From NCBI GenBank assembly GCA_963749915.1, contig CAVVOP010000022.1:448001-512000 (forward strand): DNA of 64,000 nucleotides. The letters run 5' to 3'. The notes beneath the pieces are model-generated. The model saw only the letters and a list, made by a program, of their open reading frames with translations. It was not told where the DNA came from and did not search any database. Of this stretch, positions 51,246-64,000 are shown piece after piece (position 1 is the stretch's first letter; every line of letters starts with the position of its first letter). The position numbers were made by a program, and so were the translations under genes. The stretch comes from an uncultured cyanobacterium (GTDB lineage Bacteria > Cyanobacteriota > Cyanobacteriia > Cyanobacteriales > Cyanobacteriaceae).

Positions 51246-52151
51246 GGCTCTTCTACAGTGAGTATGACAAATTAAGTACAAAAACAAAGTCACAAAATGG
51301 TAAAATTTTACACAAGTGAAGCGATCAGTTCTGATAAATAGATGCTACCTCGCTTTTAAACTATTAGGAAAATTAATCAAATTTTTAAATAAAACAATAA
51401 TTTTTATCTTATGCCTTCTAATTCCTCTCTTCATCTTATCACTAAACTTATTAATTTTGAGGGAGTCAAAGCTACTGATTACCATTTTATTACTGACAAC
51501 GAAATTTTAATTACATTATCGAATCAAACATCAGAGTCAACTTGCCCTTATTGTCATACTATTACTAATAAAATACACCAAGATCATTATTATCGAATTA
51601 GAGATATACCTTTGAGTGGTTATGATGTGTTTTTAAATATTAACCGCCGTCAATTTCGATGTATTCATTGCCAGAAAATTTTTAGTGAAGAGTTAAATTT
51701 TGTCAAAAAAAGAAGGACTTATACAACTAGATTGGCAGAGAAAGTAGTTAAGGAAGTGCTAGAAAGTGATATTTTAAACACTGCCAAAAGAAATGGAATG
51801 ACTCCCAGAGAAATAGAAACCTTATCAAAAGAAAAATCAGAAGATTTATTAGAAGAAAAACCAAAGGATTTAAAAAGATTAGGAATTGATGAAATAACTC
51901 AGTTAAAAGGAGGAAAGAATTACGCCGCAGTGTTAGTGGATTTAGACAAAAAAAAACCGATAGCAATTTTAGAGAACAGAAGTAAAGAGACAATCGGAAA
52001 ATACTTGATAAGTCTGGGTTGTGAGGTGTTAAATCAAATTGAAGAAGTCAGCATAGATTTGTGGATAGGATATAAAACTTTGGCATTGGAGTTAATGCCA
52101 AATGCCAATATAGTGGCAGATAGATTCCATGTAATGAAACAAATAAATGAG
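51246..52151 (+). mobile_element. ISL3-family IS, copy 1 (3'-truncated); transposase fragment 51411-52154
   Basis: Left IR GGCTCTTCTACAGT. Transposase with zf-ISL3 CPYC/CIHC, GIDE and ADRFHV motifs. Near-identical to copy 2 until it stops at QINE. Confidence 0.92.
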
Positions 52152-52439
52152 TAGTCAAAGTATAGACGATTTTAGATATCGCTAATACAATCCTAGATGA
52201 AATGGTTGAATGTGTTAAAATTTTTCTGAATTTATCTATCTTAAATCAATTCTGATAATAACTGGAAGCTAGGTATAATAAGTGTTCTCCCCTTTTTTCT
52301 AATTATTCAAACCAATGAACACACAAAATGAACTAAAAATTGACTGTTTCTTTCCTCAATTTTCTCTTGCTTTTAGATTAATTATTGCAAGCTTCATCGG
52401 CATTTGGCACTAGCTTTACTTTTATTCAAAATGGTTTTC

Positions 52440-54422: not shown

Positions 54423-55761
54423 GGCTCTTCTACAGTGAGTATGACAAATTAAGTACAAAAACAAAGTCACAAAATGGTAAAATTTTACACAAGTGAAGCG
54501 ATCAGTTCTGATAAATAGATGCTACCTCGCTTTTAAACTATTAGGAAAATTAATCAAATTTTTAAATAAAACAATAATTTTTATCTTATGCCTTCTAATT
54601 CCTCTCTTCATCTTATCACTAAACTTATTAATTTTGAGGGAGTCAAAGCTACTGATTACCATTTTATTACTGACAACGAAATTTTAATTATATTATCGAA
54701 TCAAACATCAGAGTCAACTTGCCCTTATTGTCATACTATTACTAAAAAAATACACCAAGATCATTATTATCGAATTAGAGATATACCTTTGAGTGGTTAT
54801 GATGTGTTTTTAAATATTAACCGCCGTCAATTTCGATGTATTCATTGCCAGAAAATTTTTAGTGAAGAGTTAAATTTTGTCAAAAAAAGAAGGACTTATA
54901 CAACTAGATTGGCAGAGAAAGTAGTTAAGGAAGTGCTAGAAGGTGATATTTTAAACACTGCCAAAAGAAATGGAATAACTCCCAGAGAAATAGAAACCTT
55001 ATTAAAAGAAAAATCAGAGGATTTATTAGAAGAAAAACCAAAGGATTTAAAAAGATTAGGAATTGATGAAATAACTCAGTTAAAAGGAGGAAAGAATTAC
55101 GCCGCAGTGTTAGTGGATTTAGACAAAAAAAACCGATAGCAATTTTAGAAAACAGAAGTAAAGAGACAATCAGAAAATACCTGATAAGTTTAGGTTCTGA
55201 GGTATTAAATCAAATTGAAGAAGTCAGTATAGATTTGTGGATAGGATATAAAACTTTGGCATTGGAGTTAATGCCAAATGCAAACGTAGTAGCAGATAGA
55301 TTTCATGTAATGAAACAAATAAATGAAGAATTAGATCTGATGCGAAAAAAGCAAAAAAGGGCAGCTTCAGAAATCAAAAATGAAGTAGAAAAAGAGAAAT
55401 TAGAAGAAGTCAAAAAAGTAGCACCAGAGTTAATAATAATGTACGCAGAAAAAGAGGCATGGAGGGATATATTTGAAAGTGAAATAACAGCGGAAGAAGC
55501 ATTAGATAAAATAGCGGAATGGATGAAATCAGCACAGAAATATTTTCCCAAAAGTTGTCAAACAATAAGAAGATGGCTAGATGAAATATTAGGCTATTTT
55601 GACAACAGAACAAGTCAAGGTATAGTAGAAGGAATTAATCAAAAAATTAAGCTGATTAAGAGAAGAGCTTATGGCATGACAAATTTTGATAATTTTAGGC
55701 GAAGAATCTTATTAAATTGGTCTGTATCTTAAAAATGTATCATAGCTACTGTAGAAGAACC
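54423..55761 (+). mobile_element. ISL3-family IS, copy 2 (both IRs); transposase 54588-55732 frameshifted at an A8 run near 55125-55132
   Basis: Left IR GGCTCTTCTACAGT and right IR (reverse complement GGTTCTTCTACAGT). C-terminal TSQGIVEGINQKIKLIKRRAYG. Copy 1 has A9 at the frameshift site. Confidence 0.95.
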
Positions 55762-55799: not shown

Positions 55800-55846
55800 C
55801 TGACACCTGACACCTGACACCTGACACCTGACACCTGACACCTGAC
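55800..55846 (+). repeat. Heptamer tandem repeat (CTGACAC)x6.7, STRR-like
   Basis: Six perfect copies plus a partial copy. Confidence 0.95.
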
Positions 55847-55891: not shown

Positions 55892-57703
55892 TTACTTATA
55901 ATATTCAGCTTGGGTAGCAAATAGGTGGGCATAAGTACCCTGAAGTTTCATAAGTTCCTCATGAGTTCCACTCTCACTAATTGTGCCATTTTCCAGAACA
56001 AAAATACGATCTGTTAGCTTTACCGTAGAAAGACGGTGACTGATAATCAAAGTAGTTCGATTTTTGGCTAAATGACGAAATTTAGTTAGTACTTCCGCTT
56101 CTGCTTGGGGATCTAATGCACTGGTGGGTTCATCAAGAATAAGGATAGGACTTTTACGCAGATAAGCCCTAGCGATGGCAATTTTTTGCCATTCTCCGAT
56201 ACTTAATTCTTCTCCTCTTTCAAATTCGTGACCAAGAATAGTATCGTAACCATGAGGAAAACTGGCGATCATTTCTTCAACACCTGCGAAAGAGGCCGCT
56301 TGGCAAATATCCTGGGATTTATGTAGTAATCTCACATCCCCGAAGCCAATATTCTCTGTCACCGTAAGATTATAATGAGCATAATCTTGAAAAACAGCAC
56401 TAATTTGTTCCCGTAAAATTGAAGTATCGAATTGTCGTAGATCGATGCCGTCTATGGTAATATTACCATCGGTCGGGTCATAAAGACGGCATAACAGCTT
56501 AACGAGGGAACTTTTCCCCGCTCCATTTTTTCCCACAAGGGCAACGGTTTCCCCTGGCTTAATGGTAAAGTTAAGATCTTCCAACACGGGGCGAGAACTT
56601 TGAGCATAACAAAATTGAACGTTATGGAATTGAATTCCCACTTTCAACGGCTCAACAAAAGCACAAGGATGGCTAGGTTCTTCTACTGTCGGTTTTAAGT
56701 CGAGGAACTCATAGAAACTCGAAAGGAATAGACTGTTTTCATAAAGACTGGCTAAACTAGACAATGCTTCCCTCAATAAACTTTGACCCCTTTGAAATGC
56801 CTGATAATACATAACTAGGCTACCAATACTAATCTTCCCTTGAACCGTTTGGTGAGCAATAAAGCCAATAGAACCGAATACAGCCAGATTTCCACTCCAC
56901 TGGGTGATCACTTCTGCGAAAGAACGTTGAGTTGCCAGAGTTATTTTTTCTTTGCGAATAGAAGTGCGTAGTTGATTATATTGTTTGCGAAAACGAGAGC
57001 CTAAATTAAACAGGCGAATTTCTTTGGCATGAGTTTCGTGGGTAAGTAGCCAGTTAAAGTAATCTGCTAATCTTTGGTTTGGTGTCCATTCTCGCCAACG
57101 ACGGTAAAGTTTATCAGCATATTTAATTCGTATGATTAAACTAGGTACAACTGCAAGAAATAAGATAGTAACGATTCCCCAATGCAAAGATAAAAGTAAC
57201 AAGGAGATCGCCACTAGAGAAATTCCGCTTTGTCCTAGTTGGATCAACTGATTTAAAATTATTCTTGGACGATAAGGAGCTTCAGATTGGGCTCGATGTA
57301 AAGCGTCATAGAAAGAGTTATTTTCATAATACCCTAAGTCAACTTCGGTGGATTTAGCGTGGAGTAAATTTTGTACATCATCCGTTACAATTTCCGAGTG
57401 AGCCTCATTGACCACTGCCGACAAGGAACGAGACAAGTCAATAATCAGGGCAATAACAGCCGCAAAAACAATTAGCCCAATTATTTGCTTCATGTCACTG
57501 GTTTTAGTCTCTAAGCTCATAGTGACAGTGTCTATGATTTGTTTTGTTAGATACAGCGAGATAAGGGGAAGGAAACCTTGAACAAAGAGCAAACCAAAAG
57601 AAGCAATAGTTAGAGCGGAAGAGCTGTGCCAGGCAATTTCTACTGCTCGCCATAAAAAGAGTAAACGTTTGATTCTTTGCTTATTACGATAGTTGAAGGA
57701 CAA
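55892..57703 (-). CDS. ABC exporter (fused TMD-NBD) of the lasso peptide cluster
   Basis: TM region; GKNGAGKS, LSIGEWQKIAIARA, ILDEPT, ISHRLS; divergent from the lasso operon. Confidence 0.9.
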   Translation of the reverse strand: MSFNYRNKQRIKRLLFLWRAVEIAWHSSSALTIASFGLLFVQGFLPLISLYLTKQIIDTVTMSLETKTSDMKQIIGLIVFAAVIALIIDLSRSLSAVVNEAHSEIVTDDVQNLLHAKSTEVDLGYYENNSFYDALHRAQSEAPYRPRIILNQLIQLGQSGISLVAISLLLLSLHWGIVTILFLAVVPSLIIRIKYADKLYRRWREWTPNQRLADYFNWLLTHETHAKEIRLFNLGSRFRKQYNQLRTSIRKEKITLATQRSFAEVITQWSGNLAVFGSIGFIAHQTVQGKISIGSLVMYYQAFQRGQSLLREALSSLASLYENSLFLSSFYEFLDLKPTVEEPSHPCAFVEPLKVGIQFHNVQFCYAQSSRPVLEDLNFTIKPGETVALVGKNGAGKSSLVKLLCRLYDPTDGNITIDGIDLRQFDTSILREQISAVFQDYAHYNLTVTENIGFGDVRLLHKSQDICQAASFAGVEEMIASFPHGYDTILGHEFERGEELSIGEWQKIAIARAYLRKSPILILDEPTSALDPQAEAEVLTKFRHLAKNRTTLIISHRLSTVKLTDRIFVLENGTISESGTHEELMKLQGTYAHLFATQAEYYK

Positions 57704-59032: not shown

Positions 59033-59305
59033 ATGAAGGTAATGGTACCTGAGTCCGTTTTGGTGCAAAATTTAGATAATGAGTCAGTATTGCTGAATAT
59101 TGATACAGAGCAGTATTTTGGCTTGGATGATGTAGGCTCTCAGATGTGGGATCTTCTCAAAACCAGTGAATCAGTAGAAAATGCTACAGAAAAACTGCTA
59201 GAAATATACGATGCAGAAAAAGAACAATTGTACAAAGATTTACTGGAATTCATCGAAAAATTATCAGAACATGGTTTATTACAAATTATTAAAACGCGAG
59301 ATTAA
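59033..59305 (+). CDS. PqqD-family RiPP recognition element (lasso B1)
   Basis: ESVLLNIDTEQYFGLDDVGSQMWDLL...DLLEFIEKLSEHGLL. Confidence 0.92.
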   Translation: MKVMVPESVLVQNLDNESVLLNIDTEQYFGLDDVGSQMWDLLKTSESVENATEKLLEIYDAEKEQLYKDLLEFIEKLSEHGLLQIIKTRD

Positions 59306-59729
59306 TTCATTATTACAGTTATCTTCTCATGGGCGAAAATTACTGTTACAAGCTCTGATTTTATTCCCGTTAGTTCATCTTTCTCTAACATTAAAGGGAT
59401 TAAAACAAACTCAATCCTTGCTTGCTAATTTTGTTTCTAAAGCCCAAATTACTCCCCAAAAAAACACTGAGGTGGTTTGCTTTACGGAAAAAATAGTGGC
59501 CATCGCATCTCGCTACAGTCGTCCTTGGGGAAGCTGTTTGAGACGATCTCTTGTCTTATGGTTTTTGTTGCGCCGTGAAGGAGTTGAGAGTCAGTTACGC
59601 ATTGGGGTAAAACGAGAAAAAGACCAATTTTCCGCTCATGCTTGGGTAGAGTGGGACGGAGTTGTTTTAAATGACCAGTCCAACGTGGGAGATGAATTTG
59701 CTATGTTTGAAAATTTACGAGTTCTTTAA
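59271..59729 (+). CDS. Lasso peptide leader peptidase B2 (transglutaminase-like)
   Basis: SCLRRSL (Cys), LRIGV, AHAWVE (His), VLND (Asp); ATG 59271 preferred over 59211. Confidence 0.92.
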   Translation: MVYYKLLKREINSLLQLSSHGRKLLLQALILFPLVHLSLTLKGLKQTQSLLANFVSKAQITPQKNTEVVCFTEKIVAIASRYSRPWGSCLRRSLVLWFLLRREGVESQLRIGVKREKDQFSAHAWVEWDGVVLNDQSNVGDEFAMFENLRVL

Positions 59730-62652: not shown

Positions 62653-62681
62653 TTGACATATACATAATTAAATAATATGAT
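62653..62681 (+). promoter_or_regulatory. Near-consensus sigma70-type promoter for the lasso precursor
   Basis: TTGACA (62653-62658), 17 nt, TATGAT (62676-62681); ends 36 nt before the ATG. Confidence 0.75.
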
Positions 62682-62717: not shown

Positions 62718-62849
62718 ATGAAAAACCAAAATCTCAAAAAATATCACCCTCCTAAACTGGAAATTTATGGTAATGTTTCTAAACTGACTCAGGGTGGTAG
62801 TTCAGGTACCCCGGAAACAGCCATGAATCCCATAGGGGCACGACCATAA
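62718..62849 (+). CDS. Lasso peptide precursor (43 aa; not in the ORF track)
   Basis: MKNQNLKKYHPPKLEIYGNVSKLTQ-GGSSGTPETAMNPIGARP*: YxxPxL motif, Gly, Thr at -2, core Gly1 with Glu8. Confidence 0.92.
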   Translation: MKNQNLKKYHPPKLEIYGNVSKLTQGGSSGTPETAMNPIGARP

Positions 62850-63067: not shown

Positions 63068-64000
63068 ATGTATAGTATTTTTGAATATGGAGGAATGATC
63101 AAAGATTCCGTACGGATGTCTGCTTACATTGAGACATTGCGTAGGACAGTAACACCAGAATCTATCGTTTTAGAGATTGGTACAGGCACAGGCATTTTTG
63201 CTCTTATTGCTTGTCAGTTAGGAGCGAGGAAGGTTTATGCCATTGAACCTAATAATGCGGCCATTCGGGTTGCTCAAGATATTGCCCGCGTCAATGGTTA
63301 TGGGGATAAAATTGAGTTCATTCAGAATCTATCAACTGAAATAAACCTGCCTGAAAAAGTTAGCATAATACTCTCTGATCTAAGAGGTACTCTGCCACTA
63401 TTTCAAAATCATATTCCCGTTATTGTTGATGCCAGAAAAAGATTTTTAAGTCCGAATGGTGTACTTATTCCCCAACAAGATACTCTGTGGGCATGTGTGG
63501 TAGAGGCACCAGAATTTTATCGAGATAAATATAGTTCTCCTTGGGATGATAAACCCTATGGTTTCGAGATGAAATCAGCACGGCGATTCACTACCAATAC
63601 TTGGCATAGGTATAAAGTAAAACCGGAAGAACTTTTTGTCGAATCTCAGTGCTGGTCAACTCTGGACTATAACACCAGAGAAGATCCCGATGTCAAAGGG
63701 GAACTAAATTGGACCGTAGCACGCACTGGAGTAGCCCATGGTTTAAGCGTTTGGTTTGATGCCACCTTAGCTGAAGGGATTGGTTTTTCCAATGCCCCCG
63801 ATCAAATCGGAAGCGTTCATGGTGAAGCTTTTTTCCCTTTTTCCTTTCCCGTAAATCTTTCCGAGGGGGATACTGTTTCTGTGACTTTACGAGCTGACTT
63901 AGTGGGGAATGATTATATCTGGCGTTGGCATACCCAGATATTTGCTCAAGACAATCCTGCTCAAGTTAAAACCAACTTTAAACAATCTACCTTTTTTGGT
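63068..64000 (+). CDS. SAM-dependent methyltransferase of PRMT (protein arginine methyltransferase) fold, 3'-truncated by window; not in the ORF track
   Basis: 311 open codons: MIKDSVRMSAY, VLEIGTGTG, VYAIE, LPEKVSIILSD, ARKRFLSPNGVLIP, HGLSVWFD, FSNAP. Confidence 0.85.
   Translation, partial: MYSIFEYGGMIKDSVRMSAYIETLRRTVTPESIVLEIGTGTGIFALIACQLGARKVYAIEPNNAAIRVAQDIARVNGYGDKIEFIQNLSTEINLPEKVSIILSDLRGTLPLFQNHIPVIVDARKRFLSPNGVLIPQQDTLWACVVEAPEFYRDKYSSPWDDKPYGFEMKSARRFTTNTWHRYKVKPEELFVESQCWSTLDYNTREDPDVKGELNWTVARTGVAHGLSVWFDATLAEGIGFSNAPDQIGSVHGEAFFPFSFPVNLSEGDTVSVTLRADLVGNDYIWRWHTQIFAQDNPAQVKTNFKQSTFFG

Follow-up and report, generated by a model that had tools for sequence, protein, structure and literature searches.

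A small open reading frame (ORF) near the end of the 64,000-nt window, by which we mean the whole stretch of DNA that was analysed, is very likely the precursor gene of the lasso peptide cluster in which it lies, and would give an 18-residue class II lasso peptide with a Gly1–Glu8 ring that is exported and decorated. We consider the ORF most likely to be the precursor gene of this cluster because it matches a curated lasso-leader model and because the lasso gene cluster around it is intact. From the sequence, we infer the cleavage site, the ring, the topology, all of the modifications, and export. Binding of the YxxPxL leader would fall to B1 and the cut after Thr24-Gln25 to B2, and the cyclase would link the amine of Gly1 with the side chain of Glu8, yielding a predicted product with an 8-residue ring, a 10-residue tail, and a mass of 1680.789 Da. 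The HprK-like kinase, the NTP_transf_5 enzyme, and the PRMT-fold methyltransferase would decorate the peptide, probably in its linear form, and the ABC transporter would export the lasso peptide. Taken alone, the precursor is unremarkable, a new member of the known lasso class that is already in public protein records; what is noteworthy is its company, namely a PRMT-fold methyltransferase that occurs in lasso clusters across phyla.

Table 1. Features of the lasso peptide cluster, in window coordinates.
Feature	Position	Strand	Evidence or remarks
ABC transporter (lasso D-type exporter), 603 aa, intact	55892..57703	-	Pfam ABC_tran 3.9e-34, ABC_membrane 1.1e-11
NTP_transf_5 nucleotidyltransferase-like tailoring enzyme, 399 aa	57771..58970	+	PF14907 2.7e-61, 207.8 bits; GDLDLL motif
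B1, PqqD-like leader-binding protein, 90 aa	59033..59305	+	Pfam PqqD 3.9e-18
B2, transglutaminase-like leader peptidase	59211..59729	+	NF033537 lasso_biosyn_B2 84.9 bits vs cut-off 33; Transglut_core3 5.9e-22
HprK-related kinase-like protein, 325 aa	59742..60719	+	P-loop GKSGFGKST, then DD pair
Lasso cyclase C (Asn-synthetase-like macrolactam synthetase), 639 aa	60716..62635	+	NF033535 lass_lactam_cya 688.6 bits vs cut-off 525
Promoter-like site TTGACA-17-TATGAT	62653..62681	+	ends 36 nt before the precursor ATG; 11/12 consensus positions
Precursor ORF	62718-62849	+	43 aa; ATG at 62718, TAA at 62847-62849
Leader peptide, 25 codons	62718..62792	+	MKNQNLKKYHPPKLEIYGNVSKLTQ; NF033521 spans residues 9-28
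Predicted core, 18 codons plus TAA stop	62793..62849	+	GGSSGTPETAMNPIGARP
PRMT-fold SAM methyltransferase	63068..64000, on to window-equivalent 64222	+	PRMT_C, PrmA

The ORF translates as MKNQNLKKYHPPKLEIYGNVSKLTQGGSSGTPETAMNPIGARP. Read directly from the sequence, its leader carries YHPPKL, the Gly of a Tyr-Gly pair, and Thr24 at position -2 relative to the predicted cut. According to the available text of PMC10368454, a penultimate leader Thr is a recognised feature of lasso leaders. The core opens with Gly-Gly, so that Gly1 stands first; Glu8 is its single acidic residue, and it has no Cys and no aromatic residue. Its Ser and Thr residues are Ser3, Ser4, Thr6, and Thr9, with neither residue found after Thr9, and it ends in Gly-Ala-Arg-Pro, where Arg17 is the only Arg. 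The ORF thus has the small N-terminal residue and the Asp or Glu at position 7–9 of a lasso precursor (Gly1 and Glu8), together with the YxxPxL-type leader motif and penultimate leader Thr (YHPPKL and Thr24-Gln25), and its Cys-free core fits class II, which is defined by having no disulfides. All of the elements that the first-pass annotation had pointed out are present in the sequence (the ORF and its coordinates, YHPPKL, the Gly, Thr at -2, Gly1, the lone Glu8, and a core free of Cys and aromatic residues), and its hand-calculated mass of ∼1680.79 Da for the cyclised core agrees with our recomputed monoisotopic value of 1680.7889 Da for the cyclised (dehydrated) core. Its description of the precursor as unannotated applies only to the ORF track that accompanied it, because the exact 43-aa protein is already in a public protein collection drawn from NCBI and ENA. 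Searching by sequence among 5.8 billion protein clusters returned one match to the precursor, at 98% identity; this variant comes from a second assembly, and its sole change is Ile14Leu in the core. The methyltransferase of the second assembly aligns over 97% of the query and shows no difference there. Neither the precursor nor the methyltransferase was found in the six same-genus genomes searched.

Conservation in homologous clusters was examined with alignment queries for the cyclase and the methyltransferase, which recovered relatives of both; single-sequence contig queries returned none. Among 401 genomes sampled across the phylum, 14 passed the cut-off of the cyclase model NF033535, and each of the eight best loci (L014–L021) has a cyclase-adjacent small ORF with a lasso leader of the form K-K-x-Y-x-x-P-x-L-x-x-H/Y-G-x-V-x-x-I/L-T-x. 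In six of six enlarged cyanobacterial loci (L044–L049), the cyclase and kinase genes likewise have precursor-like ORFs between them. An alignment-based scan of species-representative genomes yielded 277 confirmed methyltransferase loci, the best 80 of which were examined; their record titles place them in Acidobacteriota, Cyanobacteria, Chloroflexota, Gemmatimonadota (Longimicrobium), Planctomycetota (a Pirellulaceae MAG), deltaproteobacterial MAGs, and others. By tblastn with the proteins of the studied cluster, these best 80 of 277 loci contain a cyclase (62/80), kinase (59/80), B1 (57/80), NTP_transf_5 protein (53/80), ABC transporter (48/80), and B2 (46/80), where many of the missing genes reflect short contigs and where all locus counts come from related genomes and are non-independent. 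Judged by these neighborhoods, the methyltransferase family is associated with lasso clusters from many phyla. The spacing YxxPxLxxYG-x5-T-x is kept in 69 ORFs from 55 of the same best 80 loci. The first-pass annotation would have been undermined by homologous clusters that lack the small ORF and use a different precursor; we found instead that they carry a small ORF with this leader at the corresponding place. Because homologous clusters keep small ORFs with the same leader spacing, a cut after Thr24-Gln25 is supported.

To describe the cores that accompany the methyltransferase, we used a strict leader pattern derived from the relatives, [YWF]xxPx[LIVMF]xx[YHFLV]G-x5-[TP]x, which gave 67 distinct cores of 12–26 residues from the best 80 of the 277 methyltransferase loci, and compared them with 18 cores from cyanobacterial clusters without a methyltransferase. 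Lys-Thr occurs within the last five residues of 47/67 methyltransferase-linked cores and 0/18 of the others; Lys or Arg occurs in the last six residues of 62/67 versus 6/18; Ser or Thr occurs in the last four residues of 62/67 versus 10/18; and Phe, Trp, and Tyr are absent from 49/67 versus 1/18. These counts are descriptive and carry no statistical test, since the loci are related. The methyltransferase-linked cores are short, glycine-rich, mostly free of aromatic residues, and mostly ended by Lys-Thr, and an aromatic-free core is a trait of this family. Kinase and NTP_transf_5 genes are present in both sets, so that the features that track the methyltransferase are the basic C-terminal motif and the lack of aromatic residues.

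We asked how the ring and the cleavage register hold up in a cyclase phylogeny (FastTree, SH-like support), disregarding spurious alternative-frame ORFs from high-GC loci in the tree's bottom clade. The studied cyclase clades with those of L067, L095, and L092 (support 1.0), whose adjacent precursors have Glu8, Glu8, and Glu7, respectively, and cores that start with Gly-Gly or Ser-Gly. This indirectly supports the Gly1–Glu8 ring that had been proposed for the studied precursor. The next clade out (support 0.997) holds the cyanobacterial loci L044–L049 and the second cyclase of L055, a deltaproteobacterial MAG locus that carries a methyltransferase, and a large group with Asp9 or Asp10 and Lys-Thr lies more distant in the tree. 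A metagenome scan with an alignment of the four cyclases added further Glu8 cores at L158, L164, L197, L210, and L193. Arg-Pro endings recur among these relatives (...TKRP in L092 and in L158, ...KQRP in L164, and ...GARP in the studied core), which suggests that a C-terminal Arg-Pro is a conserved feature of the sub-group and no accident.

The ORF could be the precursor and yet be cut or cyclised in a different register, for example after Gly26, which would give a 7-residue Gly-to-Glu ring in a 17-residue peptide. The Gly-Gly core start offers a Gly amine in both registers, the clade relative L092 has Glu7 under the Thr(-2) rule, and the first acidic residue falls at position 10 or 11 in many family members (e.g., L058, L059, and L085), so that the register across the family is not uniformly Thr(-2) with a 7–9 residue ring. 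Against this, the spacing from YG-x5 to Thr-x is constant in the 69 ORFs described above, and the Thr(-2) rule places Glu at position 8 in three of the four clade members, the studied one included. We therefore regard a shifted register as improbable and retain the Gly1–Glu8 ring with a cut after Thr24-Gln25.

The studied cluster runs in the order ABC exporter (on the minus strand), NTP_transf_5, B1, B2, HprK-like kinase, cyclase, precursor, methyltransferase. The maturation genes B1, B2, and C are on the same strand as the precursor and no more than 3.7 kb upstream of it, and the precursor ORF starts 83 nt past the cyclase stop. In addition to the matches in Table 1, the cyclase matches Pfam Asn_synthase and GATase_7. 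B1 reaches 62 bits on NCBIfam lasso_PqqD_Bac, under the cut-off of 80, and the B2 ORF as listed overlaps the end of B1 (59211 versus 59305). The kinase-like protein falls under the cut-offs of both Pfam Hpr_kinase_C (3.6e-7, 30.3 bits versus 33.3) and TIGR04352 (45.5 bits versus 200), and it matches HPr kinase chains in the PDB at 3.6e-4 over residues 125–185, the P-loop region. Comparison of the NTP_transf_5 protein with PDB sequences gave zero matches. Downstream of the cluster are three genes which, by their sequences, we take to be phosphoesterase-like, cardiolipin-synthase-like, and gyrA. Island borders were sought by synteny, and both flanking genes, a downstream gene of 276 aa and an upstream gene at 51411–52154, were not found in five related genomes; because of this, no borders were drawn.

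These surroundings bear on a second alternative, in which the precursor is genuine and the locus has recently moved, is mismatched, or is decaying, so that its peptide would stay unmodified, be branched-cyclic in place of threaded, or never be made. Upstream of the cluster there are two ISL3 transposase pieces with split ORFs (54588–55732), and the gene order departs from the usual order at methyltransferase loci, which is B1-B2-C-A-kinase-methyltransferase-(ABC)-NTP_transf_5. The closest cluster we found, L134 (cyclase 75%, kinase 65%, and NTP_transf_5 59% identical), is the only close relative with the same unusual B1-B2-kinase-C order, and it is degraded: its cyclase frame stops after ∼236 codons, its ABC gene is only a C-terminal half, and neither a precursor nor a methyltransferase was found in its available stretch. 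That neither precursor nor methyltransferase was found in the six same-genus genomes searched points in the same direction, as do a core that offers no C-terminal Ser or Thr to the kinase and NTP_transf_5 pair and that has no aromatic plug residues. However, each of the eight genes of the studied cluster has an open frame of full length in which its family motifs are present, and the second assembly keeps both the precursor, with its conservative Ile-to-Leu change, and the methyltransferase. The missing aromatic residues are no sign of decay, because aromatic-free cores are the rule in this family, although they do make threading uncertain. Recent mobility or decay of the cluster is possible in principle; as an account of the locus, it seems to us about as unlikely as a shifted register. 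We continue to read the locus as an intact lasso cluster.

Family models and the genome context both bear on the ORF itself. The precursor scored 25.0 bits on NCBIfam NF033521 (lasso_leader_L3), over the curated cut-off of 19, and 21.9 bits on NF033528 (lasso_cyano precursor), under the cut-off of 33, where the match covers leader residues 7–25 only; a Pfam search of the precursor gave zero matches. When the 4.69-Mb genome was scanned in six frames with NF033521, there were 13 candidates, and the sole match over the cut-off was the precursor ORF, while none of 14 control genomes gave a match over the cut-off. The strict leader pattern matched the precursor ORF and no other in the 64-kb window. 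The promoter-like site upstream of the precursor is weak evidence because this AT-rich stretch has many such sites (7 in the 800-nt region versus 3.5 ± 1.6 in shuffles). No Shine-Dalgarno sequence was evident before the ORF, and a pattern scan found no terminator after it, with unremarkable RNA folding (z-score +0.93). That an AT-rich intergenic region has produced this ORF by chance, with the true precursor elsewhere, is scarcely credible: its 43 codons and its want of a Pfam match and an evident Shine-Dalgarno sequence would suit such a frame, but the curated leader model exceeds its cut-off here uniquely in the genome, the position and strand of the ORF match those in homologous clusters, the window contains no other strict-motif ORF, and the exact protein has already been called in public records. 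The lasso-precursor reading of the first-pass annotation therefore holds, with the leader model over its cut-off, the cyclase immediately upstream, and the B1, B2, ABC exporter, and tailoring genes intact.

The full ORF of the methyltransferase is 397 aa and opens at TTG 63029, whereas homologues start at the ATG at 63068. It scored 37.1 bits on Pfam PF22528 PRMT_C (cut-off 27) and 7.8e-11 on PrmA, and its architecture combines a class I SAM-binding (Rossmann) domain with a PRMT beta-barrel. It has 2910 homologues at E ≤ 1e-5, the best non-identical ones at 63–64% identity. A family profile matched the structures of PRMT1, PRMT2, PRMT8, PRMT6, and CARM1 with E values from 1.6e-39 to ∼1e-31 over profile positions 4–288, and the SAM domain and beta-barrel are common to the family and these eukaryotic-type PRMTs. 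The double-E loop of PRMTs provides two catalytic Glu residues. In contrast, Asp occupies the first of these positions in 78 of the 80 family pieces aligned and scored there, and the second position varies (Gln 36, Gly 15, Glu 9, Asp 7), with Gln in the studied protein. Where PRMTs have the THW loop, the family has (L/T)(I/V)Y and the studied protein has S-V-H; it alone has His at methyltransferase position 264, where Tyr stands in 77/80. Because the double-E and THW loops are not kept, we term the protein a PRMT-fold methyltransferase and stop short of classing it among the PRMTs.

The methyltransferase also differs from PRMTs in an extra C-terminal region of ∼70 residues that is predicted to be helical. 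In Pfam, this extension matched DUF5645 alone, at an E value of 0.0015 that is below the cut-off. We considered whether the extension might be a PqqD-like leader-binding domain; hhalign gave a probability of 0.5% against 46 B1 homologues and the cluster's own B1, and this candidate was rejected for now. The AlphaFold model of the methyltransferase has a mean pLDDT of 66.6, with the active-site loop at 118–150 below 50, and owing to this low confidence in the loop the acceptor pocket is not readable from the model.

As a target for the methyltransferase, we tentatively favor the conserved basic residue near the core C terminus, which is Lys in most relatives and would be Arg17 here; this is our best candidate, and it may well be wrong. 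A broader proposal, which we offer as speculative and would rate as rather doubtful, is that a large and uncharacterised class of lasso peptides without aromatic residues, spread over several phyla, is marked by the PRMT-fold methyltransferase, and that in this class the steric plug would not be encoded but built enzymatically on a conserved C-terminal basic/hydroxy motif (Lys-Thr mostly, and Arg-Pro in the studied clade), with Arg17 N-methylated in the studied peptide and helping to lock the thread. The mass variants of +14, +28, and +80 Da that the first-pass annotation had proposed to look for agree with the methyltransferase and kinase genes in the cluster.

Known lasso methyltransferases are of other types. 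In the available parts of reviews to June 2026, the types named are the C-terminal O-methyltransferase and the PIMT type (PMC8498205, PMC9266682, and PMC13352647). The former, represented by the lassomycin and StspM enzymes that methylate the C-terminal carboxyl, and the latter, represented by cellulonodin-2 and lihuanodin, are, like the studied enzyme, SAM-dependent and encoded in lasso clusters (the same partial sources). According to the available text of PMC9266682, a mitomycin O-methyltransferase served as the template for a homology model of StspM, and the aspartimide enzymes are homologous to PIMT. By these descriptions, the studied methyltransferase, with its PRMT architecture, is set apart from both the StspM and the PIMT types. 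The openly readable full-text literature that we searched yielded no account of a PRMT-type enzyme within a lasso cluster; an earlier mention in subscription papers is possible.

The remaining tailoring genes are candidate counterparts of those of known phosphorylated lasso peptides. The pseudomycoidin cluster (psm, from Bacillus pseudomycoides) and the paeninodin cluster (pade) have, like the studied cluster, split B1 and B2 proteins, a cyclase, and an ABC exporter, together with an HprK-family kinase to which the HprK-like protein of the studied cluster may correspond, as described in the available portions of PMC6993621, PMC8498205, and PMC9266682. In paeninodin-type systems, the kinase acts on the linear precursor and phosphorylates its C-terminal Ser (PMC8498205, in the part available). 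The psm cluster also has an uncharacterised nucleotidyltransferase-family gene, a possible counterpart of the NTP_transf_5 gene, and the available text of PMC6993621 describes PsmN, annotated as an uncharacterised NTP transferase, as required for the attachment of one or two hexoses to the pseudomycoidin phosphate, a bulky hexose-phosphate group which the authors suggest helps to keep the thread. We infer that the NTP_transf_5 gene of the studied cluster and PsmN belong to the same family. Unlike pseudomycoidin and paeninodin, which have a C-terminal Ser, the studied core ends in Ala-Arg-Pro, and the studied cluster adds the PRMT-fold methyltransferase. With no Ser or Thr after Thr9, the core is missing the paeninodin-type C-terminal Ser acceptor. 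Judging from the core sequence, either the kinase and NTP_transf_5 enzyme would act on Ser3, Ser4, Thr6, or Thr9, or they would be without a substrate here.

The studied cyclase and leader exceed curated cut-offs of the NCBIfam cyanobacterial lasso family (NF033535, NF033528, and NF033521), through NF033535 and NF033521, respectively, and the leaders of its other members share K-K-x-[YW]-x-x-P-x-L-x-x-[YH]-G. The studied precursor differs from the members of that family in falling under the NF033528 cut-off, and its core has 18 aa, whereas theirs mostly have 21–58 aa and only 1/18 is aromatic-free. We detected no methyltransferase in the seven enlarged cyanobacterial lasso regions examined (L044–L050). 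Microcin J25, also of class II, has a Gly1–Glu8 eight-residue ring and no disulfides, together with aromatic plug residues and a fused B protein; in contrast, the studied core is aromatic-free, and its cluster has split B1 and B2. As far as the literature searched goes, the NCBIfam cyanobacterial lasso families are known from genome mining only (e.g., the available part of PMC9332814).

Relative to these systems, the new aspects of the studied cluster are the PRMT-fold methyltransferase, the aromatic-free core, the Arg-Pro C terminus, and the lack of a canonical phosphate acceptor. If the proposal above is true, the Arg17-methylated product would be the first case of a lasso peptide, and of any RiPP, tailored by a PRMT-fold enzyme. 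The cluster is compact (∼8.3 kb), and its core has a single Arg and no C-terminal Ser or Thr, which makes it well suited to telling the role of the methyltransferase apart from that of the kinase. Such clusters could reveal a new peptide modification, and they could show how lasso peptides keep their thread without bulky side chains.

The lasso peptide cluster's nearest relative that we found lies on a metagenome contig (L134:3285-8203), where the cyclase is 75% identical to that of the cluster, the ABC transporter 69%, the kinase 65%, and the NTP_transf_5 protein 59%, and where the unusual B1-B2-kinase-C gene order is the same. The L134 cluster is degraded; its cyclase frame stops after ∼236 codons and is directly joined to the C-terminal half of an ABC transporter gene. 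Neither a precursor nor a methyltransferase was found in the L134 stretch examined.

Directly adjoining the lasso cluster in the window are the ORFs of an ISL3-family transposase, which looks split, the first encoding the N-terminal zinc-ribbon/HTH part and the second the C-terminal DDE part, and which is probably inactivated. On the 3' side of the ABC transporter gene, a heptanucleotide repeat separates that gene from this remnant.

Features beside the lasso cluster (window coordinates)
Feature	Position	Strand	Description
ISL3-family transposase, apparently split	54588-55732	+	two adjacent ORFs
Tandem repeat	55800-55846		CTGACAC x 6.7, perfect

The PRMT-fold methyltransferase of the cluster (L003:30-1223) has His at residue 264, which aligns with the THW-loop Trp of PRMTs; in 77 of the 80 homologues (the best 80 of 277 confirmed relatives) this residue is Tyr. 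The cluster is also among the few whose core ends in Arg and not in Lys-Thr.

When core position 1 was set by the penultimate-leader Thr, many precursor ORFs at the 80 loci with a methyltransferase homologue (L054-L133) had their first acidic residue at core position 10 or 11, not 7-9 (e.g., L058, L059, L085, and L111). Either these precursors are cleaved in a different register or their rings are larger than any characterised. In some genome and metagenome lasso loci (L062, L069, L070, and L150), the methyltransferase homologue is adjoined by another that is more distant (25-55% identical), and we suggest from this that the tailoring methyltransferase gene has been duplicated there.
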